A stretch of DNA of 64,000 bases from Amoebophrya sp. A120 (GCA_905178155.1 CAJINV010000014.1:716116-780115), one strand, 5' to 3'; shown: positions 230 through 63,700, counted from the first letter of the stretch. Notes: generated from the sequence alone by a model not told the origin. Made by a program: numbers and translations.

Positions 230-3200
230 CCCCGCGTCGACAGCCAGCTCCTTGCCGATGTCGGACATTTTGGTGTCTTCCTTGGCCAGCCACAGGGACC
301 GGACCAAACCCAGCACGGACTGCACCCCTATGGACACAGACATCGACATGGCCAGACTCGTGGGCGCGAGCATGTAATCCTTTCCGGCCACCGCAGAGGA
401 AGCATTCGCGAAGCTGGGGCCCGCCGCAGGGTGCTGCCGAATCACGTGCAGGCCGCCACGCATCTGAGTTTATTTTTGCTAGTTGTTCGGTATAGTTACT
501 TGGAACTGCGTATGCCTACTATTAATCAGCTTTAGAAAAAATTTTCCATGGTGGTCTGTCACGCAGATGGATCACAACAACTACAACATCCAACGGGCCC
601 TGCTCTATTAAATGAACGAATAGAAGCGTAGGAGTAGTACCGGGTCCACTTTGAAGGTGTAGTGTTTTAGCGGCAAGAAATTCTCTCCGATCGCGTTGAT
701 ACCACCTGCCAGGGACGAGGAGGCCCCTCCTGCGGACGCCGCGCTGGTCGCGCCCACAGAAGTTGCACCAGTGCTTGAGGCCGCAACCGCGTGGGCAACG
801 GCCTGGGATGAAGCTGCGCCCGCTCCTCCAGTGACACCTCCACTCCCCGCGGCCACCAACGCAGCGTTGACTTGCCCGGCGTTGTTTGCAATGAACAAAT
901 TGCCCCCGGCGGTGGAGGCAGTGGAGACGTATCCTGTGCAAAAACGTCGGGGGCCCCAAACCGCATGTTAATTGGAGGTCATGCAAATCTGCATGCAGCT
1001 GCCCCAGAAGTCTCTCATCATGATTCCCAATGAGCAGCACTTTCCATATGACGTGTTGGACCAGCCTTCCGAAAAAATCATGCTCTTGCTAGCAGGACCA
1101 CAACATGGCCAATTACAATTTCAATTCGTCGTGATGCGGCTATTTATAGCCAAGCACGACCACAGAGACAGACACATACACACTGCATGTCATCAAAAGC
1201 ATGCGGAGTCGACAATGTGCTTCTCGAACAAGAAGATCTGTCTAACCAGATTTCTGATCTCGCCTCCGGAAAGGGGTGAACGACGTTTTTACATAGAATA
1301 AGATGACGCGCTGGATGAGCCAGGTGTCCGCGACGTTTTTGATGGCGTTGGTGGTACTGGAGCCGGTCGCGCCGAGAACGTAGGCGGGCGTGATCACGTT
1401 GGGCGTGGCCCGGTAGTGCGTTATAACGCGCTCAGGTGTTACAATCTCAAACGTTACAATAGAGTTTGGAAATCTGTGATCCAAAAAGTGCATGACCTAG
1501 CCTTCATCTCCCACAGGTCTGCGCATGACAAGTTCCGGAGTCCCAAACCGCACTAGAATCATCATCTGGCGAGATTTGTATTGCAGAAAGTGGACCAAGT
1601 CTGTGTCTGTCATGCTCATCATGCAACACAAAATCCAGACTCTATTGCCACATTGAAGATTGCAACATCTGAGCAAGCCATATGCGTGATCCGCGTCTCC
1701 TGTTCTATGGGCTGCTTCATCTCGGCCTCCCAACGGTTCGACAGGTTGTTCTGCTCCAGGTTGGGGTGGTGCGACAGGGCGGCCCGGTTGATCCGTGTTC
1801 GCGCGGTGGTGGTGCAAGAGAGTTTCTTCGCTCGTGCACAGGTCGTCGTCTCTACTTCGGACGTAGTCTTCAGCTTGTCGCTCAACCTGATCGCCGGGGT
1901 CTCCTGTGCCGTTCCAACACCGCCTGCTTCGTCGGGCGAGACCGAGAGTGTAGCTGCCGTTCCAGCTTCTGCATGACAAAGTTCATGGTCTGATTCCGTG
2001 CAAGCCGTGGACTCAACATCGGACTGGGACGAGGGCCCGTGCTGGTGCTTATGCAGTAGGAAAAGTACACGACCGCATGAGGATTTTCCTCTTCATTCAT
2101 AACCATAAGTAGTAGTAGAAATTATTGCATCACAAAAAATTGTTTATGCAGTACAACAAGCAAATACCAACATCTGAAAGATGGAGAGAAAGAGGTTTTA
2201 AAACCTCTGCGATCATACCGATCAAGACTCGTATTGCAAGTATAGTACTGCTGCAAATTTCCGCGGTACTACTGGTACTGCAAAAATTGGAATTTCATCG
2301 TATGATTAGAATTATAACCCGTGATCATGCGAGGATGGTACTTTTGCAGATGGGATACTGGTTTGTTTTTTTCTTCTATGGAGAGAAAAAAGTTTGTCAC
2401 AGTCACTACCTTGCAGGTTTTGCATTACAAATTTTTTCAGCATCACAGCTTTTCTTTGTATTGCAGAAACACTAGGGAAATCCCTAAGGAAGTTTGGCTG
2501 TGATGCATTTTTACGCATGACAGGAAGTTTTGTATTGCAAAAATGCGCATGAGTGATCGTGACGAACTTTTTTTGTTTGATATCTTCGTCGGTCCAGTAA
2601 AACTCTGTTTCCCGGCGCGCCGACCATGGAGTTTTGGAACCTTCACCGTGATGGGTTTGTCGTGAAAGTATCACTTGCAAAAACGTCCCCATCCCAGAGT
2701 TGTCATGCAGATTGGCAATGGCAGGAACATTTGTAATGCGCATCTCCATGAGAGGCATTTCCAGTCGTGTTTTGGCATTTGCAATGCTGTAACCAGGATA
2801 AGCAGATGGATTTGTGATGCGTTTGCCCTTGCTAAGCTGCACTACACTACGGACTGAAACTTGTGATGCGTGAGTTCCAAAGCCTCTAGGTTTGTGTTGC
2901 AAAATCCCCATCTTGACTCTGGGGTGGGGACATCTTTACTCAGGATAGGAAGGCGCCAAAGGTCAGCGACTGGAAATCGGACTCGGAACCTCCCGAAGCG
3001 GCTGACGAGGGGGACCGCGTGGACTGGTCGGAATGGTGATCATGATGCTGATACTCACCACCAGCGGACGAAGATGTTGATGTGAAAGCGTGCCTAATAG
3101 CACTTCCATCCTGCTGGTGGTCTACTTCACGACGCGCCTCCGACGAAAGAATGTCGTTCGGTCTTCTCCCATTTTTAGTGCCAAAAAGCTTCTTGTCGGC

Positions 3201-6200
3201 ACCATGTTCGCTGGTCGTGTTAATATTCTCTCCACTGGAAGTAGTTGTAGTGCTAGACGTCATGAAAGCTGACACGCTGTGCCAAAACGTGTCAAGCAAA
3301 GAAGGCTTGGCGTTGTAGTAATTTTCATCTTCCTCAGCGCAGGAAACACCTGGACCACGACCGTAGAAATCATCATCCTGCTCATCGGCATTAGAAGTGG
3401 TGTTTGAAACACACGAGCGCGGAGTGCAATTATCAAACAAAAAAGTGCTAACGTTAACGGTTTTCGCAGATGGCAGTTATGCATTTACAAATTTTGCCTT
3501 CCATGCATGCTGCGCAATACAAATTTAGGCACCTGACATTTCCTGATGCATTACTGCATAACAAATTTCGTAAACGTTAACACTTTTTCTTGTGATAGCA
3601 ATTATCCTGCTCCGACGTTGAAAAGTCCTCTACTTCGCTGTTCACGTCGGTGGTAGAGTTCTGGTCCACATCCACCCCGGTGGCGCAAGAATTCTCGTCC
3701 GTGAAGAAAAAAGAACCCCCGCCTGCTTTTGATGATGTCTCGTCCCGTCCGTGCACTTCGAGTTGGTGATCCTCCTCGTCGGATACTACAATTTTTGTCC
3801 CGACATAATCCATCGACTTTTGCGCGGCGGCCGGGGCCGCCCCACCGGGGGGCTTCAACTTCGTATCGCTCCTTCGTGGAGGTCTCTCCGTAGCGAGAAA
3901 GTCGGGGGAGTGCAGCAACAGTGGCGTGACGTCAGACGGTCGTGTGGAATCGTTGTTCCTCCGGTCATCTTGCGTGCAACCACGTGTGGGTGAGAGGGAC
4001 AACGTCTTTGCGCCGTCCGAGTTGGAAGTTGCACAGAAATTGTGCTGAGCATCCCGTGGAGGTCCTCTTGCAGAAGGAGCCCGCCCTTGATGTTCGACGT
4101 CCACATTGGTCTCCTCACTGACAGGTGGGGATTCGAGCAAAAACGTAGACCCGACGAGCAACGAAGAGCCGGTGGATGCTTGTTCTTCGCTGACGCACCT
4201 ACTAGAGATCAACAAGTCCGGCGTTAGTGTTTGCTGCGGTTCTTGTTCAACATCTCCTGTCAACATCAGGAGGCTGTGGTCCTCGTCCTGGATGCTTGAG
4301 GTGGAAAGGTCTTGCGACACCTCACCAACACGCGTCGAGCAACTTCCAACGGAAACATTCAAATATTGTGATGCTGCAGTTCTTGCACCAGAAGGCGCGC
4401 CGCCTTGCTTGTCTTCGTGCTCCTGGAGGTGGTTCTCGTCGTCAACTACACACCAGTTGTCTTCAGGAAGATGATCTGGCGGCGAGTAAAGAGTAGAGGC
4501 GTCAGTACAACCAGTTGTAGCATCTGCATCCCCATCAAGAACTTGTTCTACAGAAGGCGCGGTCGTGGATGCTTGTCGCTCGACGAGGAGATTCGCTTCG
4601 ATCTTAGCTACTGCCCTAACCTTTCGCGGCGTTTCGAAGGCCGCATCCTCTTCATCTCGCAGTTGTGCTATTTGCAAACCCGGCGGGGCTTCTTTTTCTT
4701 GTCGCGGAAGCGGTCGCACATCACGATTCGTAGTTGTAGATTCAACGATATCAGTGTCGGCTTTCCTCGTGCTCTCCTCGCCTTCTGCTTCTTCGAGGTG
4801 GTCGTCGGGCCGCGTTGCAGTGGTCGTGGTGGTTCCAAGGGTAGCTTTCAACAATATCTCGTCACCTTCATCTTCTGCCGACGAGCAGGGAGGTGATAGC
4901 ACATCAACCGGGCTCGTTCTTTTGCTGTGCGGTGGATCATCCTCGACGTCGTCTTCCTCGTCCTCGTCTTGCAGCTCTACTCCCTCCTCTACCACCGGCA
5001 GCTGCATCAATTTTGCCTTGTGCATTCGCATCAGATGATGTTGATGAGAGGAGCCGGAGCCGGACGACAGATGATTATTAGCATGCTTCAACGAGTGGTG
5101 TATCCGGCCGGCCTTTGGGTTGATCTTCGTGTGAGGCTGTGACCACTGTGAGGGATTGTTATTATTTCCAGCTTGTTGCCTTGTACAAGTTGTTGTGCCA
5201 ACGACATGCGCCGACGAGGAGGGGAGTTTGCTGTTGTAAAGAACTCCTGCTGGACTACTGGAGGAAGCCGCAACAACTACTCCTTGTCCTTCTGCTCCTG
5301 CTGGTCCAACAGCTGCACCGCTAGTAGTTCTACAACTCGTCCTCCCGTTTTTCATCATCAAATTGTGGACATTTTTACTACTATTCGTTGCAGTGCCTTG
5401 CTGCAGTTCTAGTGCCTCATGTTCTTCTTCATCACTCGCCCGCGAGGTTTTCTTATCCTCGTGGTCTCGTCTGCTCGACGTCGACCTGGCACCAACAGTG
5501 GAAGTACCGCAAGACGCCGATCTGCTACTACCACGGGCAGCTGCTCTTTGCTCCCTGCCGCCTTGTGCATCTGCAGGGACGATAGTAGATGAAGCGCTTC
5601 TACCCGAACTACCGGCGGTAGGAGCTGTACTTTTGCCGAAAAACTCATGCAAGAAAAAAACTGCGCAAGTCTAGGTAAGTTTGTGTTGCAGATCATGTTC
5701 AATCCAGTCACAGTTGTCATGCTGGTTGTGCGTCTTCATCATGGGTTCGCTTCATAAGTGTTTTCAGTTTCACGTACTTTACTGACGTACTAGGTGCCGC
5801 TGCGCATGACAGATTAATGTGTCAAACAAATTTGTGATGCGACTCAGCATCCTGCTCCAAAGTTACACTTCCACAGTTTTTCTTTTGGATAAAACTGGAA
5901 GGATTTGCCGGGCCGGATGCCGAGCCAGTAATCTTCCAATCGCCGGAGGTTTTTCTCCACAATGCCCTCGGCTTGCGGTTGTAGCTGGGAAAGAACCATG
6001 GCAAGGTTAGAAGATGTTCCAGCACGACCGCAAGTAGAATTTGTCACCTCATTTTCAGGTCCACCAACCGGAGCTCCGCTCCCAGCAGCTTCTCCACGAC
6101 TAGGACCACCGGAAGCCGTTTCCGAACGAGTAGATGATCCGGCAAAATTTTTTGCGGACTCATTTACCATGTCCATGTCCGTCCTCACGGAGGTTGTGGC

Positions 6201-9200
6201 TGTCGTGGTCGTTGTGGTTGTGCCGCACCTTCCCGGGCCCGTGGTTTTGTAGTAGTCGTCGTCCCAGGTAAGCGCTAGAGGTGCGGCCCCCCCTGCAGAT
6301 CCACCTCCAACCAGCAGACCGATTGTGCCAGTACTTCCTGTCGTGGGAATGTTGATTTGATTCCCCGTCAAGAAAATACTGTTTCCGTCTTCCTGCCCGG
6401 GGAAAATACTGCTGCCGGAAGATGAACTACAGGTACCGGCCGACGAAATTTCCACCACCGACTTGCCGAAAAAGTACTCAGAGTGGTACGCGTAGTTGGC
6501 CTATGCATTGCAAGTATACGTCTGGTGCTGTTCTGGAAGGATTCAATTACACTTACACCTGTGATGCGAACAAGTTCGAATCACGCAAAAATTTGTGCTG
6601 CACGAGCGCGCTTGTTCGTCCCAACATTGCTTCACTAGAACGCAAAGAACAATTTTGAGTTTCTCCGTACAAAACAGGCATCTCACCACCTCTGCAAACA
6701 AGCCTGGATAGGCTTTCGGGGGAAGTCAACATCCGCGTCACTTGTGTGAAGGATGCAAAAGCTGCACGACGACGACACAATCGACATCTCCACCTTTCAC
6801 TTCTAGACCCAGACGCAATATTTGCAATGTTGCATATGGCCAGCCCGGGCGGCACGTAGTTGCCGAACGTCAAGGAACGAAAGAGCTCCACCTTGGTCGA
6901 CAGGTGGCGGATGTGCGAGCACAGCGCCGTGATATCAAATGTAAAAATGTCTGGGTCTGGAAGAATGCAGAAGTCTGTCATGCAGATTTTCCATGACCCA
7001 TGAGGTCTGTAATGCATGCCCTAGCATCAGAGATTCTGTGAGGGCTCTCTGATGCTCATACCGCATCAGAAACGCCCTGTCCGATTAGCGCAGATTGCGC
7101 CTCTTATGCTGTTCATGCAATACAGATTTTATGTAGAGTCCAAAGGTAGCATCACAAGTTCCAACTTTCCAGACCCAGACATTTTTGCAGTTCATACGTG
7201 ACGTCCAGAAACGAAATTCGCGCGTTCAGAGCCATCAGGTCCACTTGGCGCACCCGGTTCCCCCGGCGCAGGTGCTGCAAAAACTGCAGCCACGCGGTGA
7301 ACTCGCTGTAGTCACACTCCACGGATATCAACTGTAAAAATGTCCGGGTCTGGAAGATTGCGAGCTTTGTCATGCAGATTTTCCATGACCCATGAAGTCT
7401 GGAATGCAGGGCCTAGCATGACAGAGTCTGTGAGGTCTCTGCCATGCCTATCCCGCATGAGAAACTACCTCCCAACTTGGTCGAAAGTGGACAGCTTTTG
7501 GCACTCATTCGTTCGTTCGTATGGATCGGCTCTGCCGACCGGGTGACCCATCGCCTTGCATATAAATGACCGACATAGGCGATCCCCGTTACGGGACATA
7601 CATATTGGCCGCACGGAAGGGCCCTAGGCGCTACATACATAGTTCATCCTAGCGCCTACCACTTCGGTCGGGACTAAGTCAGCCTGGTCCTGGGGGTTCA
7701 CAGCGCACTAGCCATCTGCTAGCATAAACAGACTGGGTTTTACAAACTGTAACTGATCTAACATCTCATAACAGTGAGGCCATCATAAAGGTGCGCTAAA
7801 ACGGGTTCGGGGCGCTCCGTACGGAAGGGAGCCTTTCGACGCGGCGCACACTCTCCTGTAGAGTTTTACGCGGAACACGGATGGGCCGCGCACGCAACTC
7901 AGTCGAGGAGGACACACGCTCCCTCAATAATAGAGGCGGTAGTCAGGTCACTCACGGCGGCTGGCCTGTCTGAAAACGGTAATCCCCACCACCCATCTTC
8001 CCGGTTCGTCAATGACTCTGGCAAGCCATGTTACTTAGACTCCCCGCACATGCAAATATGGGACGGCGGGGGGGTTTTAAAAAGAGCTCTCGCCGTCCTT
8101 GATCTACTATAAAAGAAAAAGCCCTATAATTTCGGCGAGGCTGTTTAACTACTCGCTAGCTGATGGCCTCCTCAGGCAGCCGGCCCCGGGCATTCTCCGA
8201 GGCTTAAAACTTGCTATATTTTTTCTAATGTCGCGAAGGAAAACAAAGAAAGAAAGTGGCGGCAATGCCGCCAAAGACAACACCCAACCCGAAGACCACC
8301 GGGCAAAAATCATGGGGGGTGGGACACCAAAAACGAACGGGGCCAAGAACTTCGCGGCCAAATACCTAGCGCCCTGGGGCTCCTCCCATCCAGAGAGAAA
8401 ATGGCCCAGAAGGGAGGCGACCCCGAGGGGAGGCCAGGCGCGGTGTGCAAGATTAGGGGGGGCGGCAATTCGCCCACACAAAAAACCGGGAAACCGCCCG
8501 GCGAAATGATCAACAGCAACCACCTAGCCGGAAACAGACCGGGCGGGGCACCTCTTGCCCCGACTAATTCCTTGCCTAAATCGATGCTAAGGCAGGCGAC
8601 TAACTTCGCGCCTAAATTCCTGGCTAAATCACGGCTAATTTTTTTCATTGCAAACCCTTTCGCATTCCCTATGCTTGAATTAGAAACAAATTAGACGCGA
8701 AATTAGACCCCAAATTAGCCCCCCCCAACCCCACCTCTGCGCCCCTCATAAACCTCGGCCGGGCGGGCCGGGGCCATTGATATGCGGCCCGAGACAAATG
8801 GAAAACAGTCGCGCCGTTTCCCTCTGGGGCAAAAACTAAAATCGCAGGGGCGCAAACCTTGGAAACCCCGGGCCCCGATGCGCCACGGGCCCTGCAGACA
8901 CTGGGGCGGGCAATCTTCGCCAAAAAAATTAAAAAAAATCCCCAGCGCCCCAATTTCCAAAACCTGCAAAAACTACCGACGAAAAAACCCTTGCCCGGGC
9001 TACCTCTAGAACCCTTGGGGCCCCAGACTCGTGGGGCCACGACGAAAAGAAAAAAGGAGGGCCACAAGCCGGAACAATGTGGGCCCCACAATATTAGAAA
9101 AAAATCGGCAGCCTTTTAGGCGGCAAATTTGCGAGCCATCGGCCGGCTGAGCCTCCTGTATAGTAATGGTCTCCCTTTTCTCCTCCTTTCCCCTTTCTCA

Positions 9201-12200
9201 ATTTAACTCGCCTGCATCCCCCTGCTAATTTAACTCGCCTCCCCGTTTATCTCTCTGAAAACTCCGTCCGCAGTTTCACTCTCCTGCCAATTTAACCCGC
9301 GACGCCAACGGCTTTACTTCGGCGCATGGTGTGAAATCTTCGCGGCTTCTCTTCTCAGCTCCTCGACCTCTGCGCAGCGTTTTGCTCTGTTACCTTCGTT
9401 TTTTTTTTTTTTGGATCCGCGCCGCGCTTGTTTCTCTGAGTGCGGTCGATCTTCTTGGCCTATCGTCGCCGCCTGTTTGAAAGTTTGGACATTTTGAAAC
9501 GCGCCCCGCGATTCGCCTGAAGCTTATCGGGGTGATCTTGGCCCTGTCGCGTTCGTTGGCAACTTAAGGGATCCCCTGGAGATCCTTAATCTGACTGCGC
9601 TGAAACAATCTGAGAAGTATGAGGGCAGGATCTTAAGGCGAACGCGCCGGGTCATATTTTCCGGCAGTCCTCGAGCCTGCCGGGCCTTTTCTTTTTTTAT
9701 TCAAACGGGAAATAGTGTTTTCGTTTTTTTCTATGATTTCGATGCTGTGCGTTTTTCAAAAATCTCCGGAGTGCATTTCTCAGACTTTTCAGTCGCTCGG
9801 CCTGGTGTCCGATTTTCGGTCCGTCACTATGTCACTTCAATCATAGGGATCCTGCGTCGCCTGAAGTCGTCCCCCCGCTCCCCTTCCTGTGCTGTCTTGC
9901 AGCGATCTCCGAATAATCCGCAGCGATCTCCGAATAACCCGCTTCCTGTGCTGTCTTGGCACTCATGCAACACAAATTTTTGCATTATTCGGATTTAGCA
10001 TGACAAGTTTTAATCTTCCAGACCCAGACATATTTGCAATGCATAACGGAGACGCACCGGCGAAAGTGGCTGTTGCGGAAGTAGAACCGGTACTGGTGCT
10101 TTTTTGTGGACGTCCCGGATATGGTCTTGATCGGGTTCAGAGAGGCGGAACTGCTGTTGTGCGAAGTGGAACTACTAGAGGTGCCGGACCGTGGAGGGGT
10201 GCCAGCGCCTCCTGGAGCACCACAAAGAGGTCCTGGCGTGCTATTGTGTTGCATGCCAGTTATCGACGTTGTACTCACGCCGTTATTAGCAGGTGCTAAA
10301 TCACTACTTCCAGCATGTTGATGCGCTGCGGCAGTAGAAGAAGTCGCAGCGGCCTGATCGGCGACATTGTGCTGGTCCGCGACTGCGGTAGAAGTGGCGC
10401 TCCACCGGCCAAAGATAGAACTCGACCCACTAGCAAGAACACCCGCGCCGCCGGTTGTAGTGGTTCCGTCTTTCATCCGAGAAGTGCTGTTGTTTTGCTG
10501 CTGGTGCTCCACCCCTGAAGAGGAATTATGGCCTCCTGCCCCTGAAGGTGCTGGGGGTGGTCCTGTACAACCGGTAGTTTCGACTTCTTCCTTACTGAAC
10601 ATCGAGTGCGCCCCGTTGATAATGGCCACGTTGCTCCCAATCGAACTCGTCGCGGTCTTCATCTGCTCCATATTACGACCCTGCAAATGTTCACCCTGTC
10701 GCTCGCGCTCGGCCTGCTGCTGGGCTCGATGCTGCGCCTGCTGTTGGGCGGCTGCGGCGGAGTCCGAGACGTGAAGCATTATCATATGTAAAATCGTCCC
10801 CATACCAGAGCCAAGATGGGAAATCTGCTAGACAAAATCAAGCAGCTTTGGTTGCTTCGCATGACAAGTTTGTCCTTGTAGTGTAATCCTGTTTAGGTAG
10901 TTTAGCAGCACCACAGATCTAGCCTATCACGCGGATTCTAGCATCACAAATGCCACAACACGACTAGAAATGGCTTCGCATGGGGCTCCGCATGATAAAC
11001 TTTTTTCGCATGCAGATTTGCATGACAACTCTGGGGTGGGGACGTTTCTGCTCAGAATAAGCATGTCCAGGTTGTTATCGGAGGTGGACAATCGGTTCAC
11101 CGAACTCGCTGAAGAGGACCCGTAGTATCCATGATTCTGCGTACTAGCCATCTGCTGACTGTGCATTTGCTGTTCGATGATTGTCGCACCATTGCCAGTG
11201 TTCACCGTGTCGCCGGGTTCATCTGTGTTGCAGCTGTTCGTGGTTTTCGTCAGCGAGGTTGTGTTGTTTGTGGTTATGGTCGTCCCAGCATTTTGATTTT
11301 GCGCGGCACGACCCGCAGACGAGCTGTGGCTGTGGCGCGGACCTCCACTTGTTTCCAGGTGCTGATTCTGTTGGTCTACTTCTACTGCTCCAGACGTAGA
11401 ATTACTGGTTTTATTCACATTTTTCGAGGAGGAAATGGAGCAGGAGGAGGTCGTGTCAAATGTAAAAATGTCTGGGTCTGGAAGAGTGCATGTTTGTCAT
11501 GCTTGTCTGGTATGATTCTCAAATCTGTCATGCACGTTACCGAATAGCGCCAGTTTTCTGTCATGCAGAAACGCAGGCTGTAATGCAGAATAAGCAACAC
11601 CTAGAAGCTCAGAAACTTGCCATGCTGAGCCAGCACTTGTGGCCTCCTCATGATACGCCACCCAGCATCACAAGTTTCCAGACCCAGACATTTTTACATT
11701 TGATAGGTCGTGCTGTGCTTCGGATTGTCCACCGACGAGGACGCGAGGTTGCTAGAGGATGATCCTGATGCTGCTATGAAAGCGTCTGGATTGAAATCGT
11801 CAAAGTTGAAATAATTATTTCTCATGCATAAATTGGAAGGCATGAAGCGCCTCTCTTGCAGGGATGGCAAGTGAGGCCGACTGTCAGCCTGTTTGGGGTC
11901 TGCGATGCAGCTGCTGAAGTAGCATGACAAAGGACGCCTTCTATCCCTAAACAGCATGACAAACTGGATTTAGACGGTGCCGAAATTTGTCATGCGCCCC
12001 TTGGCAATTGGGCTTCCAACTGGTATCGATTTTAATATGCATATACAAGTTATTTCAACTTTGTCGATTTCAATCCTGACACTCCCATAGCTGCGTTTGG
12101 GGAAGAAGTGGAACTCGAGGAGGAGGAGCTCGTCGTGATTTCGTACGGCAAAACCAAGAGGTCCGCAATGAAGCGGCTGGCTTCAATGTGCGGCAGGCAC

Positions 12201-15200
12201 AGGTATGAACTGCAAAAGTATCGTACTAGTATAAATTCAAATTGCAATACAAATTCGCTCAGCATTACAAGTAATGCGGATTTACCTCAACAGCCTAGAT
12301 TTGTAATGCATAGCTGCAATTAGTACGAGTACGAGACTTTTGCAGTGCATAACAGGTACTCCTGGGGGATGTCCAATGTCAGCTGCATCGTCGCCCGGTC
12401 CAAGGAATAGTCCTCTTCCAAAATGCGGATCAGGTCCAGCGAAATCCGGTCCGCCGTCGACATTTCGGTGGGGCGGGTGACGATGATGGAGTGGAACAAC
12501 TTGGAAGACAACAGGTTGCCAATCGGTTTATCAAATGCAAAAGTGTCTGGGTCTGGAAGAATGCAACTTGTGATGCGCATTTCAGAACACAGAAAAATCT
12601 CTCACGCATAGGTGGCAAAAGCTGCCCACTTTCTGTCACCAAAATGTAAATGGGGGATTTGTCATGCGGATTCGGCATTGCGGAAGCTTCTCGAAACCTG
12701 TGATGCTAGAGCTTCCATGCCAGACCTTCTGTGTCATGCAAAAACAGCATGACGCTTCCAGACCCAGACATTTTTACAGTTGATACGGTTCCTCCGGCAG
12801 CAAGTGCGTCGCGGACCGGAAGGCGGACAGCTCCATGTAGTCGAGCCCGTAGCACTATGGATTGCAAATATGTCTGGGTCTGGAAAGTTGTAATGCTGAA
12901 TGGTCATGATTGACGGCGCCGGTAAGTGCAGTGCAGCATGACAAATGTTTCAAACGCTTTCTCATGCGCAGAACGCATTACAAAATGCGCTTTTGCAAAG
13001 CGAGAGTGTGGCGGTTTATTTGCTGCTTATGCAATACAGATTTCTTAGGAATGTGAAAAATGCAACACAGATTCAACATTTCCAGACCTAGACATATTTG
13101 CATTTGATAAGTACCGCATGGCCTTCCGGTACACGTTGCGCCACAGTGTGGTAGGCTTTTCCGCTAGGATCAAGCTGTAGTGAAAATTCCGGGAGGGGCA
13201 CAGCCGGAGAATCACCAGGTTGTTCTCGTTCATATGAGCCGAGTTGTTGCAGGAGCTGCTATTGATGTTGCCGCCAGACTGGCGCTGGTGGTGGTTGTAT
13301 CGCCCGGAAAAATTATTAGTACCGCCTCTCGTCGCGGTGGTGCCCGGGTAATGCTTCTGCTGCTGCATCTCGTCAATGTTGAAAGTGTTACTAGTACTCG
13401 ATCCATGATGAAGAGGACCACGATAGTTGTTTTCAACAACACCACCCACGCTATGCTCCGCGGAGCCCGCTCGGTCAGGATCTTCACGATAGTTGTAATT
13501 GCTGTGTAGTGGCTGCAACGACCCAACGTCTTCGAAGTATCAACTGTAAAAATGTCTGGGTCTGGAAGAATCCAACTTGTCATGCTGATTTTGGATTCTA
13601 AAAAAATATGCATTGCATGAGGAGCAAAGAGAGTCCAAGTTTTGCTACACGAAAAGAGCATTTGTCATGCGGTATAGGCATCAGGAAGCCCTCACAAAAT
13701 TTGTGATGCTAGCGCATGCATCACAGACATCAGAAGTCATGCAAAATGCGCACGACAAACCTGGCAATCTTCCAGACCCAGACATTTTTACATTTGATAC
13801 GAAGCTAAGCTTGCTCATTTGAGGGTCGTCGTGCTGCTGCACCAGGTGCATGCTGTAGTCTTGCTTGATCAGATATCGCAGGGAAAACTGTTTCACTTTG
13901 ATGATTTTGCAAGATCTGCATCACAAGTTTGTTACACATGACGCTGAAAATCTGTCATGCGCGCTTCCCAAGGGAAAACACGCTTGAAAATCCAATGTCT
14001 TGCAGGTGTAGCAAGACAAGTAGTTCTGTGTTCCATTTCCTGCATCACAAGTTCACAGTGAAGCAGTTTTTTCTTGCGATATCAGACTGCCCGTAAATCC
14101 CGCCCGCACGCTGTAGTACTTGGAAAAGGACTTGTTCATGCGAAATACCTCGTGGTCCACCAGATTCGAGTTGTTTTGTCCGGTTTCAACATCGATTTGG
14201 TAGTGTTTATTGTAGTAGTTGTCGTGGTGCGTGCCGTTGTAGTGGAGCTGCTGATTATTCTGGCCGTAATCTGGCAGAGCTAACATTCCACCTGCTCCAG
14301 AACTACAGTTATAATTTCTCTTGCCGTAATTATTTCGAGAGAAATTATGGTTGTAGAAGTTGTGTGTCAAATTGCAGTTGGCTCCACCAGCATTGCTCGC
14401 CGTGACCGGGGGCTCCTTGACGTGATTCCGGTTATTTTTCAAGTACAGCAGCGCCTTGCTGTGCAGCAGGAGCTTTTTCTGGCGGTGGTAGGCCATGGAC
14501 GAGGACGAGGAATTGATATCATGATGCGAGGAGGAGACAATTGCAGATCCTGAATGCTGCGGCGCGCCGCGGCAAGCAGTAGTTGTTGCACAACTTCGAA
14601 GGTTATCCTTATCTTTAACATCCCGCAGTGATAATCTACTCCCCCCCGCGAGCCCAAACGCGGACGATGTAGCGGAGAGTTGATGCGGCCCAACATAATT
14701 CATCCTGAGCCGCAGGTCCGCCTTGAGATTGCACCGTGCCAGAAACCCGGTGGATTTCCAGCCCTTCTGGTAAAAATGGTAGTCGGTCATGGTCTATCAA
14801 ATGTAAAAATGTCTGGGTCTGGAAGATGGCAACTTGTCATGCTAAATCTGAATCAGGCAAAAAACTGTGTTGCTTGATTGCCAAAAGTTGTGCACTTTTG
14901 ACCTAAAAATCGAGAGGCAGTTTCCCATGCAGGATAGGCATTGGAAAGGTTTCGCAGAATCTGTCATGCTATGTCCTGCATACCAGACCTCATGTCATGG
15001 GTTATGGAAAACCTGCATGACAAACTCCTGGAATCTTCCAGACACATTTATTTTTGCAATCCATATGGCCACGTCCAGCGGGAACTTCGTGTAGGGGAAC
15101 AGCTCCGTGACCTTCTTGCACAAAACGGACGACTTGAAAAGGTACTCGAAGCGGTTCAGACACCCCTCCACGTACTCCAAGACGTCGGACAAAATCCCGG

Positions 15201-52262: not shown

Positions 52263-52889
52263 TCTCGGCGTGGTTCCCTTCGGTAGTTGTGCTAGTGCGT
52301 CTATTCTGGCGGTTCAGCAAAAACATGAGGACAATCGGGTTGTTGTAAAGCTCCGGAAAGGTGATGTGGTGTGCCACCGGAGCAAGTTCTTTATCAGCAG
52401 AACCGTTGGCAGGAGCCTCCGGCAAGACCCGGTGCTCGCGATCCAGCACCGGCGGTCCAGGCCAAAAACGCGGGTCGTTGTCGAGCTCGTTCGAACCTTG
52501 TTGATATAGTTCGCAAGGTGGAATAAAACATTAAGTGTTCAATGATTCATTGTTTACCAATCAATCTGCTTCTCCTGCTTTTTACTTATGTCGTGTTTAA
52601 AATAAAAACAGTTATCTTGAAAAAGTAAATAAGTAGAAAAGTACCGTCATCCGCCGGTTTTTCTTGCGGCTCTTCAGCATTCTTGCGCACGGTTCGTTCC
52701 ATCAACGCGGCATAGGGTTCGGTCCCCAGAGCATCATGCGTAATGTCCCAGCCACTCGCCGGCAGAGTGTGGTGGAGAGGATCCGACTTCGCTAACCCTC
52801 TTAAGGTCCAGGTCGGCATGGAAAGTCTGAAGTGTGAAATTCAAGTTCGTACTCGTTTCCATTCTTTCCTCTGTGACAAGTACTATTAT

Positions 52890-54131: not shown

Positions 54132-54794
54132 GCTGCGACTTGTGCTGAAGCTGAACTAGTAAAGTGCCAGAGTATTGGCTGACTGTTGTGGTACACAAAA
54201 GTTTGTTCAATTCGAGGAGTCACGTGCGTTGGAGTAGATCGATTGTTTCGTTTTGTGGAAATAACTGTTTGCAATGACAGATTGTGCAATTCGTGGGTTG
54301 CGTGCAATAACAAACATGCGGCGCGTGCTGCGATAAGTGGTTTCTTTCGTTTACGTTCTGGACAATAGTGCCTTATGCGATTTCCTTGACGCGAAAGCGA
54401 AAGTCGTGCTTTCTCTGTAGAAAAATGTTTCAGCGAAATACTTTACCCCTTTGGAAGTGGGCGTAAACTTTCTATCACGCGAGAGAGGATCGCTGGAACT
54501 CACAGAAAAAAATCGATCGGGAAACAGGATCACGCTCTTGAACGAGAGTGAATGAACAAAGACCGCGGTTGATCAAATTCAGGACGGATGGCATTAGCAG
54601 ATCCGATCCTATCGGTGTGACAAAGATGAAAAGATTCGGAAAGACATAACTGGCGTCGGTCTTGTTACTCCACCACTGCAGTTCTGTCTAAAGCAACACT
54701 TCTTTTGCTAAAGCTGTCTCGCTAGTCGTCTAATTGAAGGCGAGAGCCGGGCTGCTCTCTCGGACGAGGATACAATTACAAACCTCGCCTACTT

Positions 54795-57700
54795 CTAGAA
54801 GAAGTATTTGGCCGCCTCCCGAGCGATGCGCTTCAGTTTTTCCTTGGAAATCCCCAACTTCTCCGCCATCTCCTTGTTCGTCAACGCTGGCTCGTCGTTT
54901 TTCAGATCCAAGTATCAAATGCAAAAATGTCTGGGTCTGGAAGAATGCAACTTGTGATGCTGCATTTGGATGTCTAAAAAATTTGTGTTGCATGAGCAGC
55001 AAAAAGATCTAATTTTTGCTTAGCGGAGAGGGCATTTGTCATGCTAATAGTCATCACGAATCCCTCGAAAAACCTGTGATGCTAGGGCATGCATCACAGA
55101 CAGCATGGCTCATGCAAACCGTGCATGACAAGTCTCAGAATGTTCCAGACCCAGACATTTTTGCATTTGATACCAAGTAAGCAAACACCAAGGGATCTTC
55201 CACGGCGTTCTTTTGCACTTCCTCTACCACCTCCCCGCCACCAACAGCACGTGCTGCCGGCGCGAACGAGGAGCTACCGCCCGTCGAGCTGCTGCTCGCA
55301 TTGATGTTCAGGTTGTCGTTTCGGTTTTTTGTTCCCTTAGACTGCTCGCACTGCTGCTGACCTCCATTGAGCGCCTTCCCGATCTCCAGTAACGCCATGC
55401 GCAACTCCGAAGACTTAAACCTGCGGTCATCGATCGGACAAAAATGTTGTTGATTCGAGTTATTCTTATTTTGACGAGATGCGCTACAAGTCGGTACAAC
55501 ATTACATCACACAGTAAAAAGAAAAACACTACATTTACTTTGACCACATCATCTTGTTCCGACTTCTTCTTCATCATTGTTGATGGGTCATTCATCTCAT
55601 TGTTTTATGTTTCTATTGGACAAAAGCGACACAATACTTTTGCAGAAAATCGCCTCCAACCACCGTCTGTAACTCCGCCTTGAGCTTCTCCGAGCAGATT
55701 CTTACGCTTTGCAGGTCGGACAACAGGTCGCAGACTTCTCGTTCCCGTGTGTCCGGCATGTGGAGTATATGCGTCTCCGTAAACTCCGATAGCGGCTTCA
55801 ACCCTGCCACGCCTCCCGTGACCGGGCTATCAAATGCAAATATGGCCGCTGGGTCTGGAAAGTTGTCACGATGCAAAAGGTCGTGAATCATAGGAGCACT
55901 GCGATAGTGCGCTGCCAAGCATGAAAAGTTTTTCCGCTCCTGTTGTGAAGATTTTTGCATGCCTATAGGCATCACAAAGCTCATCAGAGTCACCATGTCA
56001 GACAAGCACCATGGCAAGCAATGCTTTCAGACCCACGGCGATATGAAAATTTGCAGAAATGCATAGAGGCAGTCGGTGATCGATTTGAAGTCCCAGAATC
56101 TGCTGTTTTTGGGGATTTCCCGGAACCCCAGCAGGCAGGTGTTGCGAAACAGGCGGAGCCGCTTCACCGCGCGCGACCGTTGCTGCAGCAGCGGCAGGAG
56201 CGATTTCCTTCTCGCCTGCAGCGGCTCGATGAACTTTTCCCGCGTTTTGGAACTGATCAAACTTTTTTTTCCCGAGGACATGATCAAAAGTGGACTTGTT
56301 TTTAACAGCGGTCTACTGTTGCTGTTATTCTTCACGACAGGGCTCGACGTGCTGCTGTCGTCCGCCACAATAGATGGACCACAAGGAGCAGCAGTAGTTC
56401 CTTTGTTCGCAGTCGTTGCAACCGCGGCCGCGGCCCCGTCGACGAGAATCAGTTTCAGCAACGCCCTATGCTGTGCAAAAGTATCGCACTCGTACTAATT
56501 GCAAATATGCATGACAAATCTCCCTCCTAAGGTAAAACAGCATATACAGATTCCACTTTTCTTCTTGCCAAAATTTGTAATGCAATTTATACTAGTACGT
56601 TACTTTTGCAATGCATACGCCCAGGTCAAGGCTTCCACCACTACGGGCTGACCCGAGAACGATCCCTGCTCCTCCTTTTTCCCAAGCAGCACAGACTCGA
56701 AAACAGCCGCGGTTTGGTAGCCGGTCCAAGCGGCGCAGTGTGACGGAATGCAGTTCTTCATCGAGAGAGTGATCTTCCCAGCTTGTTCATCCCCGTGCAG
56801 CTCCTCTCCTCGGGGCGGGCCACCCCGTAGTTTGTTCAAAGAGGACGTAGTTTGTGGCGCTCCCGTAGCTGGGTGATGCCCACCACGTCCACCGCCGTTT
56901 CGCGGGCACAATTCCAGGTTTTCTTTCTGCAAGGCCTTCTTTCCCTTTTTCCCCGCGACCGCGACCGACCAGCGACCGGTGGCCGCAATTTTCCCCTCCA
57001 CACAGCCGTACTTGCCGTTCAGTGCCTAATGGAGTGCAAATGCGCCTGGGTCTGGAAAGTAGATGCGATGAACTTGTGCTGCGGATGCTATTGCTAGCAC
57101 ACACCACAAAGCCTTGTGTTGCATGATCTAGCAGAAGATGCGCGCTTTTCGTTTTGTCCCTAAAAGACGCGACTTCTCATGCGGCCTATAGGCACGGAGC
57201 CTCCGAAGAATTTGCCATGCGCTGTGAGTATTCCAGGCCTTCTTGTTCTTTCGGATGCAAAAACAGCATTACAAGAAGGTCTGCTATCTTCGTTCCAGAT
57301 CCAGCCGGATTTGCACTTGATACGCCTGCCCCGAGACCGATTTTAGGTCCTTGATTCTCACGAGGGAGCCGATGTGGAGCTGTTCCCGATGCAGCGACGC
57401 TGCGCCAGCAAGTTCAGAAACTTTCATCTCCTGCAGAAAGAACTCTTCCAAGTGCAAGCAAGTGTAGAACTGCAACTCAAAGGTCGCTCGAATACGGTAC
57501 ACGGTGGCGAAGAACGTCTCGATGTGTGCTATGCTAGTGGATGACAACTCCCCCTCCCATTCCGTCGTCATGCAAAATTCATATGCCCCCAATGGCAATA
57601 ACCCGTATCTGGCCCTGGGCCCTGCTCTGGCTGTGTTTGCATAACAGGGCCCGGAAGCCCAACAAGCTGCGCAACTCCTGGCATGGTCTTGCCATGCGAC

Positions 57701-60700
57701 AGCTGGATCCTGCTTCCGGTTGTAGTTATTTCTGATGTTGATGCTACATACAACAAACATACAAATGCCCTGCAAATTATGAGGAAAAGGGAGAGATCAT
57801 GTTGTCCGCCATCTTCGTATCAGTCCCTTTCAGCCCACTACCGACGAGTTCTTGCATGCTTCGCGGGGTGTCCTTCTTGAAGATGCCCATGTGGAAAAAT
57901 CGCATCGACGGCCCGGCCCCGGTATGCAGCTGCTGTAGTGGTGAAGCAGAAGCACGCTCTTGCGTATGATCTTTTTTTGCCTGCTTGGATTTTGAACTAC
58001 GCGGCTCCTGCTGCAGTGTTGCAGCATTAGTGGCACATGTCTCCTGTTGACCACTCGTTTTCGTCGCATTGTTGTAGGCCCAGGCGAGACTACCTCGTGA
58101 AGATGATGAACAGGTCGAGGCGGTTCCACCTCCTGCAGCCCCGCTTATTTTCTTCCGTACTTGAGCCAGATCCTTGTCCCGGCCGAACACCCCGAACAAC
58201 CCGCCCGCCCCCGGCAACTCCAGCCACTGGCAAATGGGGTGCTTCAGGTCCTGCGCCGTGGCCCCGGGGAGCGTCGGCTGCGCGGGCAGACTATGAACTG
58301 CAAAAGTATCGTACTCGTATAGATGCATTACAAATTTTCTCAACATGAGAAAGAAAATTTGTAAATGCGGATTGGCCTTAGGTAAAGGATTTGCAATGCA
58401 TGATTGCAATACGAGTACGATACTTTTGCACAGGATACAGACACGTCGTGGCCAATTCATAGAGCAGAACCGCCTTCTCGAACCACTCGTTGCACAGGCC
58501 CAGCAGCGCCACCATCTTGGTGGGCACCTCCTTGGGGCCGGTGCGGTGTATCAAATGCAAAAGTGTCTGGGTCTGGAAGTCATGCATTATTTTGCATGAC
58601 CCACGACGCCTGTAATGCATGCCCTAGCATCACAGATTTTTAGAGGGCTTCCTGATGCCTATTCCGCATGGGCTGCCTGATAACGCCCTCCCCGCGTGGC
58701 ACAAACTGAACTCCTCTTGCTAGTCATGCAATACAGATTTTTTTGGAATCCAAAAACAGCATCACAAGTTACCAACTTCCAGACCCAGACATTTTTGCAT
58801 TTAATACGGTGCCGCAGGATGCCAATCCGCTCCATCAGCGCGGGCAGGTACACCCACCGAATGGCGCGGTAGTCCTGCGCATACTTGCACACGTTGTTGC
58901 TACCCGGGGCTGTAATTCCGAGCTCCCGCTGCGACTGCTCGCGCTGCTGCCGGGCGTACGCGGGCTCGCCCCGGTAGACCAGCGAAACCAGCGCCTCCAA
59001 CTGGGTGGACGACGAGGCGGAATCATTTTTGTCCTCCTGTTCTTGGTCGACAACGTAGTGGTCCACCACCACAGCCCCATGGTCAACACCGTGTTGCTGT
59101 TCCTCCTGCTCCGTAGTTCTACTTGCCGAAACAGAAGCTGCAGCCGCTTCGTCCGCACCAGTCGGGCCGCTGGTTAAACACGAAGAACTTTTCGCTTTCG
59201 ATTTCGCCGCAGTAGAAGTACAACTTGTTTCACGACTCGTACTAGAGTTATTTCTTGTGTTCGTTCTGACACTCCCGAGAAACGCCCAGGCAATGTTCGC
59301 TCGGTTCTCGTTTTCGGTTTCCAGTTCAAAGGCCAGCTGGAAGTTCAGCAACACCTGCACCAGGTTGGAGCTCCACTGCTGCAAGTCCGTCATGGTGTTC
59401 AGGTGGAAGTCTCGCCACGCCGGCTCGGTCCAGTACTTCCCAAAAACTTCGTGTTCCGACGCGTGAGCTCCGTGCTTCTCGAGCAGCTGGAACACCTGCT
59501 GGCAAACCGGGTGGGGGCAGATCGTACCAGACCACTCGTGGTGCAGCATCAGGAGAATGTCAGCCATGCCCTGCAGCACGTCCTGGGCCAGGATGCCGAG
59601 CATCAGCGCGGCCACCGGATCCAGGTCCACGTCGAGCTCGCCGTTGTCCCGCGTTTTCGCTGCGGGAAACAGGATATCTTGATCTTCCTCATAGTCCTCC
59701 ACAACACCTTGAAGTTGTTGTAAATCCTCATTCCTCTGACGACCCAACCCGTGTCTTTGTTCTGCTCGCACCTCGGGAAGCGAGCTGGTGCTTCTGCCGT
59801 CCTGGCCGAAGACCAACTTTGCGAAGTCCTCCGTTTTCGCAAAATACTCGGTCATCAGATCCCGGAGCGCCTTGTCGTGCGGAACCTCAGGGACTTGATC
59901 CAGCTCGTAGTCCGGAACGCCGCGGAACACGTCGGATTGTTGTTCGTACTGTGTCCGAAACGCGGCCTGCCGCTCCTTGCTGCCCTTTGGCAGGAATTTC
60001 TCCTCCCGTTCCGTGAAAGCGGTGGGAATCCGCGGCGCCACAAACCCAATCTGCTCGCCGGCCTCCCGGTTCTGCAACAGGCTCCCGTAGTCGGCCCGCA
60101 CGAGGGCGAGCGAGTCCGGTTTCAGGCTGAGGAGGACCTTCTTGCTGCTGTTGTTGTTTTTCGGATAGTTTTCGTGGTCCGGACTTGTTTGCCTGATGTT
60201 TTCGTGCAACAGTCGCACGGCATACCGCGTTTGATGCCCTTGCTGCGCGGAAATGCATTCGACAACTTCGGCCCGCTGCCCATTCAACTCCGGCTTGCTC
60301 TTTAAGTTCTTCAGATTCACCCGGTCTCCCACGCAAAAGATAAACTCCTTCTTGTCTTTCGTTTTATTGTTCCCGGGGACGATATCAAACTGGGCGTGTT
60401 CAACATCGGGCAGGTGTTGCGAACAAGCTGAAGCAGATGAGACCACTGCGGTATCAATTTTATTCCTGCTGGTCGCCTTCTTTTTCGAGAAAAACGCCTG
60501 CTGGCCGTGGTTAAAAGGTACCAGCCCGTATTTTCCCATCTGCTGATAAATCGGCGCGAGCCAGATCAGGTACGTGGCACAGGCGGAGAACAGCTCCACC
60601 TGCTATCAAGTGTAAAAATGTCTGGGTCTGGAAGATTGGAACTTGTGATGCTGCATTTGGATGTCTAAAAAATTTGTCTTGCATGAGCAGCAAAAGGATT

Positions 60701-63700
60701 CTAATTTTTGCTACGCGGAGAGGGCATTTGTCATGCGGAATAGGTATCAAGAATGCCTCAAAAAACCTGTGATGCTAGGGCATGCATCACAGACATCATG
60801 GCGCATGCAAACCATGCACGACAAGTCTCAGAATCTTCCAGACCCAGACATTTTTGCATTTGATACCTGCTGCAGCATCGCCACTGCGGTCGCGGGATCG
60901 GTTGCGCGAATGGTAGTTGCGACGTCAAGAACCGATCCTCCAGTACAACTTCTACATTGTTCTTGCTGTGCCTGTCCCGACCGCTCTGAAGAGCCACCGC
61001 GCCGACTGCCTTTCAGCTCGTCGCCAAGCTTCACATACCCATCGACCTGTTTCACATCGATTTTGTAGTCTTGGTCCTGCTCCTTCGCCGCATTGATTTC
61101 CTCCCGCTCGTCGGCATCGTCCGCCATCTCCGCGAAGTAGCGGCGGAGGTCCGCGGAGGTGAAAACGCCGTCCTCGTCCTTTACCTTTGCGGTCTTTTTA
61201 CCACTTTTCGCATTTTTTTCATCTTCTTTTTGGCCAACATTCTCATCGTCTTCTACATCGCTTGCCTCGCCGTCGTCGTCCTCCATTTCCTCTGCCTTTA
61301 GTTTCTCCGGCGCGCCCTCCAGCGGGTCCATACCCCACTCTTGCTCCAGCTGCCGCCGGATCTGTGCACTCGAGAACCAGCCCCCGAACAGAGCCAGGGT
61401 CTCGGGGTCGGCGGACCGGCACGTGTGCTCGCACGCGCCACACAGGATGTTGTAGAGCCCAAACAGCAACTGCTTCTTCTTTTTCACCGCTTTAGGCGAT
61501 GTTAACTCTACCTCGGCCTGTCGGTCCTGGTCTTTCAGCCCCTGCAGGGTAAGGTGAAAAAAAATCTTCAAGTTTAACAACTCCCCGTCGTCCGCAATGT
61601 TGAGCCCCAAATTTACGGCCGCGTGTTCCGGTGTGTACAGAATGTAGTCCTTGTTCAACTGCTTCTGGTCCGCGAGCTGCCGCTCGCGCACTTGCCTGGA
61701 CAGGATCCGCTTCGCCTCTGCCGAAGCCAGACACGAACTGTTTTTCGTGCCGCGTGTGGTCTTTTGCTTCTGGTCCTTTTGCTCTTGCAATCTAACATCG
61801 TCCGCCAAGCCCGTCAAAAACAGTTTCCGCATCGCCGAGGCGTTGGCACTTAGCTCCAGCGTGCCAGGCACAATGCCCACCTCGTTGTCCGAAGTACCCG
61901 GCGCGGTCAATTGGTACCAGCACTTCGGCGAAATTTCCGAAGTGGGGACGCCAAACACCTTCAGCAGACGCTGCAAAATGGTCTCGATCTCCGCGAATTG
62001 GCGATAGTGGAAAAACCGCTTGCGCAGGTCCTCCAACAGGAAGGCGACGGAGAGCGCGAATGCGTGGCCGAAGTGCTCCACGACGTAGTGTCGCTTCAGG
62101 TAGCCTTTCTCCACCGTGGCTGCGATGAAGTCGAACGCTTCGGTCACGGACGCGTAAAAGAGTATCACATTCCCATACTGCTTCTCCAGGTTCTGCCCCT
62201 CGTGCTGGTCGTGGACCACGCTATTAGTATCATCTGCTTGTTGTTCCTTCCTCTTGCGGTTGTACCACTTGTTGCCTTTTTCGCGTAGCCGTTCCTCCTT
62301 CTTCGTGCCGTCGCCGTCGTAGTCGTCCGCACAGGACACTTTCTCCACCTCCGTCGCGAGCCGCGCGTTGAAGCGGGTCGCCAGGTTCCGCAGCATGTCC
62401 TCCCGCTTGTCGGATACGAGCGCGCTTTTGCGCCAAAACTTCGCGTGCATGTCGTCGATCAGGGCCAGGATCTGCCACAGGCCGTCGGTCTCCACGAAGG
62501 ACACGAATCCGGTGTCGATCACCCGAAACACGCGGGCCCGGATGGTGGCCAGCAGCACAAAGTCCAGCTCTTCCAAAGTTTCGGACGACAAGAGGTCTGT
62601 CAAATTCTTTTTGCTGTACTCCTTCGTTGTAGTTTGTTCGGTACAGGTGCTTGTCGTACTACTAGCGGTCGCACTAGCAGTCGCAGAAGTGGTTTTAATA
62701 CCGGCACGTTGATCAACATCGCCAGCCCCCTGGGCGGGTTCCAAGCCCAGTCCTGCTAACGCTACGGCCAATCCATCAACGTCAACATCTTTCACTTTGT
62801 TTATTTTGCCCTCCCCTTCGTCCGCAACCGCAACCGCATCATGACCACAAAAAGCATAATCCTGGTCCGGAATCAGCCCCGGGGGTTCGCGGTTCTTCAT
62901 CTCCTTGAGCACTTTGCCGGGCGAAAACAGCTTGTGCTCGTAGAAGAACATCTTCAGCTTCCGCTCGGCCTGCTCAAACGCTTCCTGACTTAGCAGCACG
63001 AAAACTTCCTCCAGCACCGCCTCCACGGCCCCTTCCGCGTGGTCCTTTTGCGCCGCCGTGAGCTTCTCGGCCTCCGCAGTCAGCTCCGCGAGCAAAGCCG
63101 GCTCGCCCGCCAGTTCCTCCACGAGAATCACGGGCAGTGTCCAAGAACTTCTTATCCAGAGCAAAAACGTCCCCAACCGCCCAGAGTTGTCATGCAAAGC
63201 AGCAAGCTTAAAATGTCCCACATGCGCAACCCCATGAGAGCCATTTTCTAATGCTATCTGCAGACTTGTCATGGTAGAATCAGGATGAGGTAGTCAGTTT
63301 GTGATGCAACTGCACTAGCTAAACAGGATTTTTACTCTACGAGACCAAACTTGTCATGCTCGACAACCAAAACTTGTGGATCATTTCTGTAGCAGATTGA
63401 CTATGGGGTCGGGGACGATTTTGCTTAGGATACAACTTCTACCGTGATTTTTCACGTCGACCTTAGAAGTTGTTGACGGCGGACTGTCGTCCTCCGGCGA
63501 CGGTGCTGCGGTAGAAGCCGCACCGCTGCTGCTCCCGGGTGATTGCGGCGGAGATGATGCTGAACTGCTTGTGCAAGAGTCTTCATTCCGTGCGGATAGA
63601 GTTGAGGTTTTTCTGTTGTTCGTGAGGACCTCCGGTGCAGGAGGCTTTTTACCAGCATAATTTCGACCACGATTGATTGACGCTGTATCTACTTCTCTCG

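Follow-up and report, generated by a model that had tools for sequence, protein, structure and literature searches.

Introners in a stretch of the Amoebophrya sp. A120 genome share a short internal motif, TGT[CGA][AT]TGC, whose copies follow a spacing grammar, and the resulting motif arrays are probably binding sites on double-stranded DNA (dsDNA) for the protein machinery that mobilises these elements. The stretch analyzed here (the window) consists of 64,000 nt (CAJINV010000014.1:716116-780115, GCA_905178155.1), and one of its reading frames is 100% identical to A120 protein P0001. An earlier note on this DNA had proposed that the motif is a shared cis-code, acting either as subterminal binding sites for a transposase or as an intron-definition signal for a non-canonical splicing factor. 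The existence of a shared and constrained code was borne out by enrichment, conservation of the core and spacing. Of the two roles offered, subterminal protein-binding sites on DNA fit best, whereas an RNA-level intron-definition signal is disfavoured. The spacing grammar (tandem copies 31-33 bp apart, a half-site at +15 and stepped distances from the element ends) is new here and was absent from that note.

Elements were called blind to the motif, by searching for inverted repeats bounded by TAT...ATA and requiring a target-site duplication (TSD) of at least 4 of 5 bp; on 188 kb of shuffled sequence the same caller made 0 calls. In the window, 51 elements were called automatically and 7 entries were added by eye (2 of these are the halves of one split element), resulting in 57 introners with terminal inverted repeats (TIRs) in 17 clusters (blastn), plus a partial element at 1-232. 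These introners have TAT...ATA ends (TA..TA), TIRs of approximately 30 bp and a 5-bp TSD, which is perfect in 43 of 56 window elements. The families covered are the TAT-ended ones; A120 also has Mutator-like (family 65) and non-LTR (long terminal repeat) introners. A25 resembles A120 in lacking U1, but its ends are of the TTA type. A second sample was obtained by scanning metagenome contigs, which yielded 143 loci from one further assembly, with no overlap with the window, and 313 called elements, 266 with a perfect TSD. This assembly is near-conspecific with A120 (one gene is almost identical to its A120 counterpart except for intron read-through) and thus provides more copies but no independent lineage. 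Because its loci were picked with a pattern combining the family A TIR and the motif, the 157 family A elements there are biased, and the fair count is that of the 156 elements of other families.

The window contains 216 strict matches to the motif (114 on the plus and 102 on the minus strand), while 12-30 are expected from Markov models of orders 0-4. The elements hold 203 of them in 13,950 bases (14.6/kb). Outside the elements, the restored reading frames (35,385 bases) hold 5 matches, a 2,459-base nested insert holds 2 and the remaining 12,206 bases hold 6, so that non-element DNA is at chance (13 matches versus 10.5 +/- 3.3 in dinucleotide shuffles). The same shuffles made per cluster gave 3.0 matches for the 88 observed in cluster A and 0.7 for the 25 in cluster B, an enrichment of approximately 30-fold. 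These counts agree with the impression that the motif is rare in exons; for canonical introns, the 3 GT-AG introns checked have 0 strict matches but amount to just about 490 bases. A strict match is present in 55 of the 57 window elements and in 16 of the 17 clusters, and the motif is present in 312 of the 313 elements of the second assembly (155 of the 156 outside family A). The claim that it runs through all introner families overreaches: it applies to nearly all of the TAT-ended families sampled, and in the window the elements at 930-1300 and 43746-43990 have no strict match. A count of interior words made blind to the motif ranked the motif itself first among 6- to 8-mers across clusters, and the extended site reads approximately AAAYY-TGT[CGA][AT]TGC. 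A reading of GCATG as an RBFOX-like site was dropped because common variants of the motif lack GCATG.

The element at 25477-25739 illustrates the arrangement. All 5 strings quoted for it in the earlier note are present (at 25514, 25546, 25600, 25639 and 25690), and their cores are the following:

25518-25525, plus strand: motif core TGTGATGC, first inward copy as counted from the left end, at 41 bp
25549-25556, plus strand: motif core TGTGTTGC, second copy of a 31-bp tandem pair
25603-25610, plus strand: motif core TGTCATGC
25642-25649, plus strand: motif core TGTGATGC
25690-25697, minus strand: reversed motif core, at 42 bp as counted from the right end

Same-direction copies stand 31-33 bp apart in 11 of the 17 clusters when each is represented by one element. 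Randomising positions produced a mean of 1.7 and a maximum of 6 such clusters in 2000 draws, and a maximum of 8 in 400 draws when the best window was chosen. Same-direction spacings in the second assembly are concentrated at 31 (178), 32 (82) and 33 bp (47), with 10 at 30 and 3 at 34 bp, and the spacers of tandem pairs look unrelated in sequence while the spacing is kept. The motif is often followed, 15 bp downstream, by a weak inverted half-site (TGC-N7-SSA): at +15, SSA occurs in 50% of sites in family A and in 34% of those in other families, compared with 17-18% at +16 and at most 14% at other offsets. The distance from the element end to the first inward copy is stepped too. Among 26 ends, 10 have this copy at 32-34, 8 at 40-44, 4 at 52-55 and 4 elsewhere, and the period coherence of these distances (25 values, the one at 89 having been dropped) peaks near 10 bp (p=0.004 with a uniform null, 0.011 with a smoothed null). 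At one end of family A the first site is at 33 (46/177) or at 41-43 (99/177), with none at 37-40, and in family O it is at 44-45 (8/23) or 55 (12/23); length variants within 2 families jump by 9 and 11 bp. In tandem pairs of the second assembly, the second copy ends in TTGC more often than the first (71 versus 5 pairs in family A), which hints that the 2 sites are unequal.

Conservation of the motif is close to that of the inner TIR. In 14 copy pairs, counted both ways, 17 of 675 core bases had changed (2.5%) versus 885 of 4414 spacer bases (20%), and private changes among 177 family A copies affected 1.3% of TAT, 2.8% of inner TIR, 2.1-3.0% of core and 6.8% of spacer bases. The TIRs themselves, described before as otherwise unrelated between families, are so only in approximately positions 16-30, which are family-specific. 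The ends share TAT-N7-AAAA, with TAT at positions 1-3 conserved at 99% and the A-tract at positions 11-15 at 68-88% in 11 families (clusters F, H and K keep TAT with a weak A-tract). Minor variants of the inner TIR are common to both ends in 51 cases versus 16 expected, meaning that inner TIRs covary between ends. They are predicted to be 88% paired, and G-U mismatches in the TIR stem show no excess over A-C (109:110). One further element has a variant inner TIR in mirror image at its two ends, which points to the symmetry of the TIRs being maintained and not their sequence:

22303-22561: cluster A interior, variant inner TIR mirrored at both ends, 3 matches

Persistence of the motif in decayed copies was found with some loss: its density is 11.9/kb in the 13 window copies with an imperfect TSD versus 16.1/kb in the 43 with a perfect one, and 14.7 versus 15.4/kb in the second assembly. 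Concerted change of the copies inside one element is not general (4 pairs versus 2.5 expected). The CpG observed/expected ratio is 0.57 in window elements versus 1.06 outside, with TG and CA raised, which suggests methylation of introners.

Splicing was judged from restored reading frames and one annotated protein, in 2 host genes:

2328-23200, minus strand: 4072-codon open frame, host gene, which appears on removal of 26 elements plus 5 bp each
34416-39693, minus strand: COG6 gene; once its 7 elements are taken out, with 5 bp each, every junction agrees with annotated A120 protein P0001

The 4072-codon gene contains 26 introners and needs no canonical intron, and 3 of its exon frames scanned against Pfam gave no match. 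At 24 of its 26 junctions the open frame is longest when 5 extra bases are removed, as compared with 3, 4, 6 or 7. As judged indirectly, from 26 removals that give one frame and from the COG6 protein matched at 7/7 junctions, the introners are very likely spliced precisely. A 2.7-kb composite of an element and its nested insert, removed with 5 bp, still restores the frame.

B-DNA has 10.5 bp per turn, and 31.5 bp correspond to 3 turns. Sites for a protein on dsDNA fit best because of the 31-33 bp tandem spacing, the steps of approximately 10 bp, the lack of direction bias and the lack of covariation between inverted copies. A dimer-like binder would occupy the motif sites along one face of the helix, in phase with the end to be cleaved, a role analogous to that of the subterminal repeats of other DNA transposons. 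The binder may be a transposase. The leading candidate is an integrase-like (Ginger/GingerRoot-type) enzyme, or its cofactor, which would work across families, because A120 family 38 is listed as Ginger with a 5-bp TSD, TA/TA termini and frames with Copia/Gypsy homology in the part of the supplement of Gozashti et al. 2025 available (PMC12130899). The family-specific inner TIR, which covaries between ends, could be a pairing element that unites the exon ends for splicing; if so, moving and splicing would rely on different parts of the element. The motif with its fixed spacing, present in nearly all TA..TA elements sampled, could serve as bait to pull down the missing factor and as a tag for old introners and autonomous parents; it permits mobility and splicing roles to be cleanly tested against each other, and it suggests that the many reported families may be one cross-mobilised system. 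Should the motif serve transposase binding alone, a known principle would gain a neat further example; should it guide splicing, introns would be defined in a way that is new. The sections of PMC7789003 consulted list two questions as open for Amoebophrya introners: their mode of movement, and their splicing in the absence of fixed splice sites and of a detected U1.

Several observations weigh against the mobilisation reading. Pfam searches of 95 frames (250 aa or longer) and of the nested insert detected neither a transposase nor an integrase, and neither the window nor the 143 loci (approximately 0.46 Mb searched for autonomous copies) contains a long coding TIR element. Inspection of TIR pairs of more than 500 bp showed the split window element, a composite of neighbouring elements and two pairs whose inserts look non-coding, and the accessible parts of PMC7789003 report that no transposase was found in A120. 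Transposases specific to a family would not normally share a motif across families whose inner TIRs differ, as seen here, which may hint at a host factor. The helical phasing appears to be local: beyond the peak at 30-34, same-direction spacings are barely periodic at 10.5 bp (0.06; 0.19 at 10.25). Outward-facing sites are not significant after the period scan (p 0.11-0.18), inverted spacings of 45-48 and 34-36 fail the best-window null, and the period estimate is broad (approximately 8.5-11.5) and by itself cannot tell B-DNA from A-RNA. The short variant arose few times within family A (4 changes on a tree), and families share ancestry. Decay of the core shows no relation to that of the TIR (Spearman -0.06), and in the second assembly, where the strand could be inferred for 72 of the 313 elements, the sense form of the motif exceeds the reverse on the inferred transcript (160:108 sites; 35 versus 18 elements).

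The DNA-level features fit equally well with a DNA-binding factor of the host, which may be a domesticated transposase domain. It would recognise the motif in the gene and tag the element to be removed co-transcriptionally, in place of U1-based intron definition, the sites then serving splicing alone or alongside mobility. A single motif spanning families with different inner TIRs, the failure to detect U1 in A120 (in the part of PMC7789003 available), frames that are restored by removing the element and 5 bp without a common junction sequence, and a core mismatch that stays at 2.4-3.0% across bins of TIR decay are consistent with this proposal. However, the core decays after insertion, with 51 changes in 1250 bases (4.1%) in copies with a TSD mismatch versus 184 in 7189 (2.6%) in the others, and its decay rises with spacer divergence (TGC from 1.5% to 2.7%, TGT from 2.0% to 4.0%). 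Besides, the element at 43746-43990 has no strict site (three of its sites carry an identical one-base variant) and still lies inside a restored frame. We know of no precedent for splice sites defined on DNA, and we consider this proposal unlikely. Likewise doubtful is its fuller version, in which the non-canonical introns of A120 would be defined on DNA by a protein that binds the helically phased motif arrays and marks the introner, U1-less splicing machinery would cut at the marked ends during transcription, and a transposon binding code would thus have been domesticated for intron definition. Less likely again is that the motif is an RNA signal for a splicing protein or a small RNA, which its presence on both strands of most elements would allow to work in either direction. 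Both forms are on the transcript in 95 of 121 oriented elements, the motif is missing from the 3 canonical introns, and the UGU..UGC form is in slight excess overall (243:195, p=0.025 with sites counted as independent); the slight strand bias in one subset, the second assembly, leaves some weight to an RNA-level signal. Against it, the excess is not seen in the window (83:87), and the elements are split evenly between the two directions on the transcript (A 27:24, B 11:11, C 4:3), so the strand polarity expected of an intronic RNA splicing signal was not found. Furthermore, 18 elements have one form alone and 7 the other alone, a fixed spacing of 31-33 and jumps of 9-11 bases would not be expected of single-stranded RNA, and Rfam gave no match in the window.

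Copies of the motif could also act in RNA as complementary blocks that lengthen a hairpin and draw the splice junctions together. Motif bases are predicted to be paired more often than spacers (75% versus 60%), 41% of them with another copy, and element interiors fold below shuffles (mean z -2.5, and -2.2 with the motifs held fixed, in mononucleotide shuffles). Some inverted pairs of family A covary (40/140, z 5.3; 164/180, z 2.8), but the strongest covariation in that family is between copies in the same direction, which are unable to base-pair (z 8.4), and subfamily history thus explains the covariation signals. The mirror pair nearest the ends shares variable bases below chance (0.31 versus 0.47, z -5.0) and other families show little covariation, so there is no consistent signal of the compensatory change between paired copies seen in structured RNA. 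In addition, the transcribed strand is the more stable one in just 26 of 55 elements, and cluster C keeps its strong copies all on one strand, with elements that occur both ways round and frames that are restored both ways. Pairing would not call for one primary sequence across families either, and we regard this explanation as highly improbable. The least credible alternative, largely refuted, is that the motif has no present function and was passively left over from a common ancestor or from CpG decay. The TAT-N7-A-tract ends common to families and the CpG-poor, TG/CA-rich composition would agree with it, but it does not account for the enrichment over shuffles that preserve dinucleotides, for the core changing so much less than the spacers in both comparisons, or for a spacing that is held while the spacers differ.

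The window elements, listed without strand and with the number of strict matches in each, are the following:

1-232: cluster A, partial, cut by the window start, 4 matches
930-1300: cluster J, decayed, 0 strict matches, 3 one-mismatch sites
1422-1682: cluster K, 4 matches
2377-2582: cluster E, 6 matches
2669-2947: cluster C, 5 matches, one direction throughout
3431-3597: cluster L, 1 match
5646-5891: cluster D, 4 matches
6502-6710: cluster M, decayed, added by eye, 1 match
6933-7196: cluster A, 4 matches
7326-10045: cluster A, split by the 2.45-kb nested insert, 5-bp TSD intact, 3 matches in the element halves
10780-11059: cluster C, orientation opposite to 2669, 3 matches
11454-11705: cluster A, 5 matches
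11775-12089: cluster F, 3 matches
12204-12351: cluster B, 3 matches
12529-12785: cluster A, 4 matches
12856-13109: cluster A, 5 matches
13538-13799: cluster A, 4 matches
13874-14081: cluster D, 5 matches
14795-15065: cluster A, 4 matches
15244-15565: cluster G, 2 matches
16382-16534: cluster B, 3 matches
17177-17411: cluster H, 3 matches
17458-17602: cluster B, 4 matches
19202-19360: cluster B, 2 matches
20821-21070: cluster A, 3 matches
21125-21259: cluster B, 3 matches
21436-21714: cluster C, 5 matches, one direction throughout
21773-22024: cluster A, 5 matches
25477-25739: cluster A, the example above, also that of the earlier note, 5 matches
25835-25986: cluster B, 3 matches
26058-26315: cluster A, 3 matches
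26510-26774: cluster A, added by eye, 4 matches
27542-27811: cluster A, 3 matches
28041-28149: cluster N, at 109 bp the shortest, with two TIRs and a single 32-bp tandem pair
28626-28877: cluster A, 3 matches
31583-31835: cluster A, 5 matches
34996-35306: cluster O, in COG6, 5 matches
35984-36189: cluster E, in COG6, 5 matches
36503-36778: cluster C, in COG6, 4 matches, one direction throughout
37373-37591: cluster I, in COG6, 4 matches
37834-38155: cluster O, in COG6, 4 matches
38206-38522: cluster F, in COG6, 5 matches
38753-39004: cluster A, in COG6, 5 matches
42502-42762: cluster A, 3 matches
43147-43297: cluster B, 4 matches
43346-43561: cluster D, 4 matches
43746-43990: cluster H, 0 strict matches, three sites with the same one-base variant
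45052-45356: cluster G, 3 matches
45415-45638: cluster I, added by eye, 4 matches
54913-55172: cluster A, 6 matches
55827-56065: cluster P, decayed, added by eye, ends uncertain, 1 match
56467-56617: cluster B, 2 matches
57028-57322: cluster Q, decayed, 2 matches
58292-58437: cluster B, 1 match
58549-58806: cluster A, 4 matches
60604-60865: cluster A, 5 matches
63153-63432: cluster C, added by eye, 3 matches

The insert that splits a cluster A element is 2.45 kb long (7509-9967) and has an 11-bp duplication; none of its four frames contains a Pfam domain, and no copy of it occurs elsewhere in the window or the loci. Two other family A elements, L045:3304-3934 and L063:2990-3961, contain internal inserts of several hundred bases and have an intact TSD. 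The TAT-ended elements at L071:3136-3520 and at window 930-1300 are longer (370-385 bp) and have no strict motif, which makes them natural tests of the need for the motif in splicing. The genes at window 24971-49151, co-oriented on the minus strand, encode WW, protein kinase, COG6 and tubulin-tyrosine ligase domains. In viral contigs, the family A TIR was found at 2 loci without element context, and the tandem-pair pattern at 44 loci, none of which resembles the elements by blastn and which were taken as chance.

The window elements belong to the A120 introner class described by Farhat et al. 2021 (PMC7789003) from the same organism, which has inverted repeats made of TAT, 7 variable nt and an A-stretch (at least 3 A), direct repeats of 3-5 nt and no fixed splice dinucleotides, as found here. 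In the text and supplement legends available, that class is described by its terminal repeats and hairpin, with no internal motif or spacing rule. The literature searched contained no description of an internal motif in these elements, which does not establish its absence from print, and the motif strings were not found in the accessible content of 14 supplement files of PMC12130899. A120 family 38, listed in that supplement, is approximately 810 bp long and may share ancestry with the window elements. As far as the available text of PMC10045372 and PMC6839031 goes, IS3EU/GingerRoot, an integrase-related transposase superfamily, has the same TA..TA termini; GingerRoot elements are 3.9-12.9 kb long with TIRs of 100-150 bp, and no internal motif array is described. 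Because their TSD is usually 6 bp, versus 5 bp here, the window elements were not assigned to this group. Being short, multi-copy and non-coding, with TIRs and a TSD, the window elements have the traits of MITEs (miniature inverted-repeat transposable elements), and they may work like MITEs with subterminal repeats. In the portions seen of the reports on Emigrant/Lemi1 (PMC1636448) and Hermes (PMC10368747), the transposase binds, cooperatively, short repeats that are internal to the TIRs and occur in both orientations and as quasi-palindromic pairs. The motif described here is likewise present in multiple copies internal to the TIRs, in both orientations, and is conserved along with the TIR. 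It differs from those repeats in being an 8-14 bp site distinct from the family-specific inner TIR and found in at least 16 clusters, in its fixed period of 31-33 bp, and in that the elements that carry it are introns.

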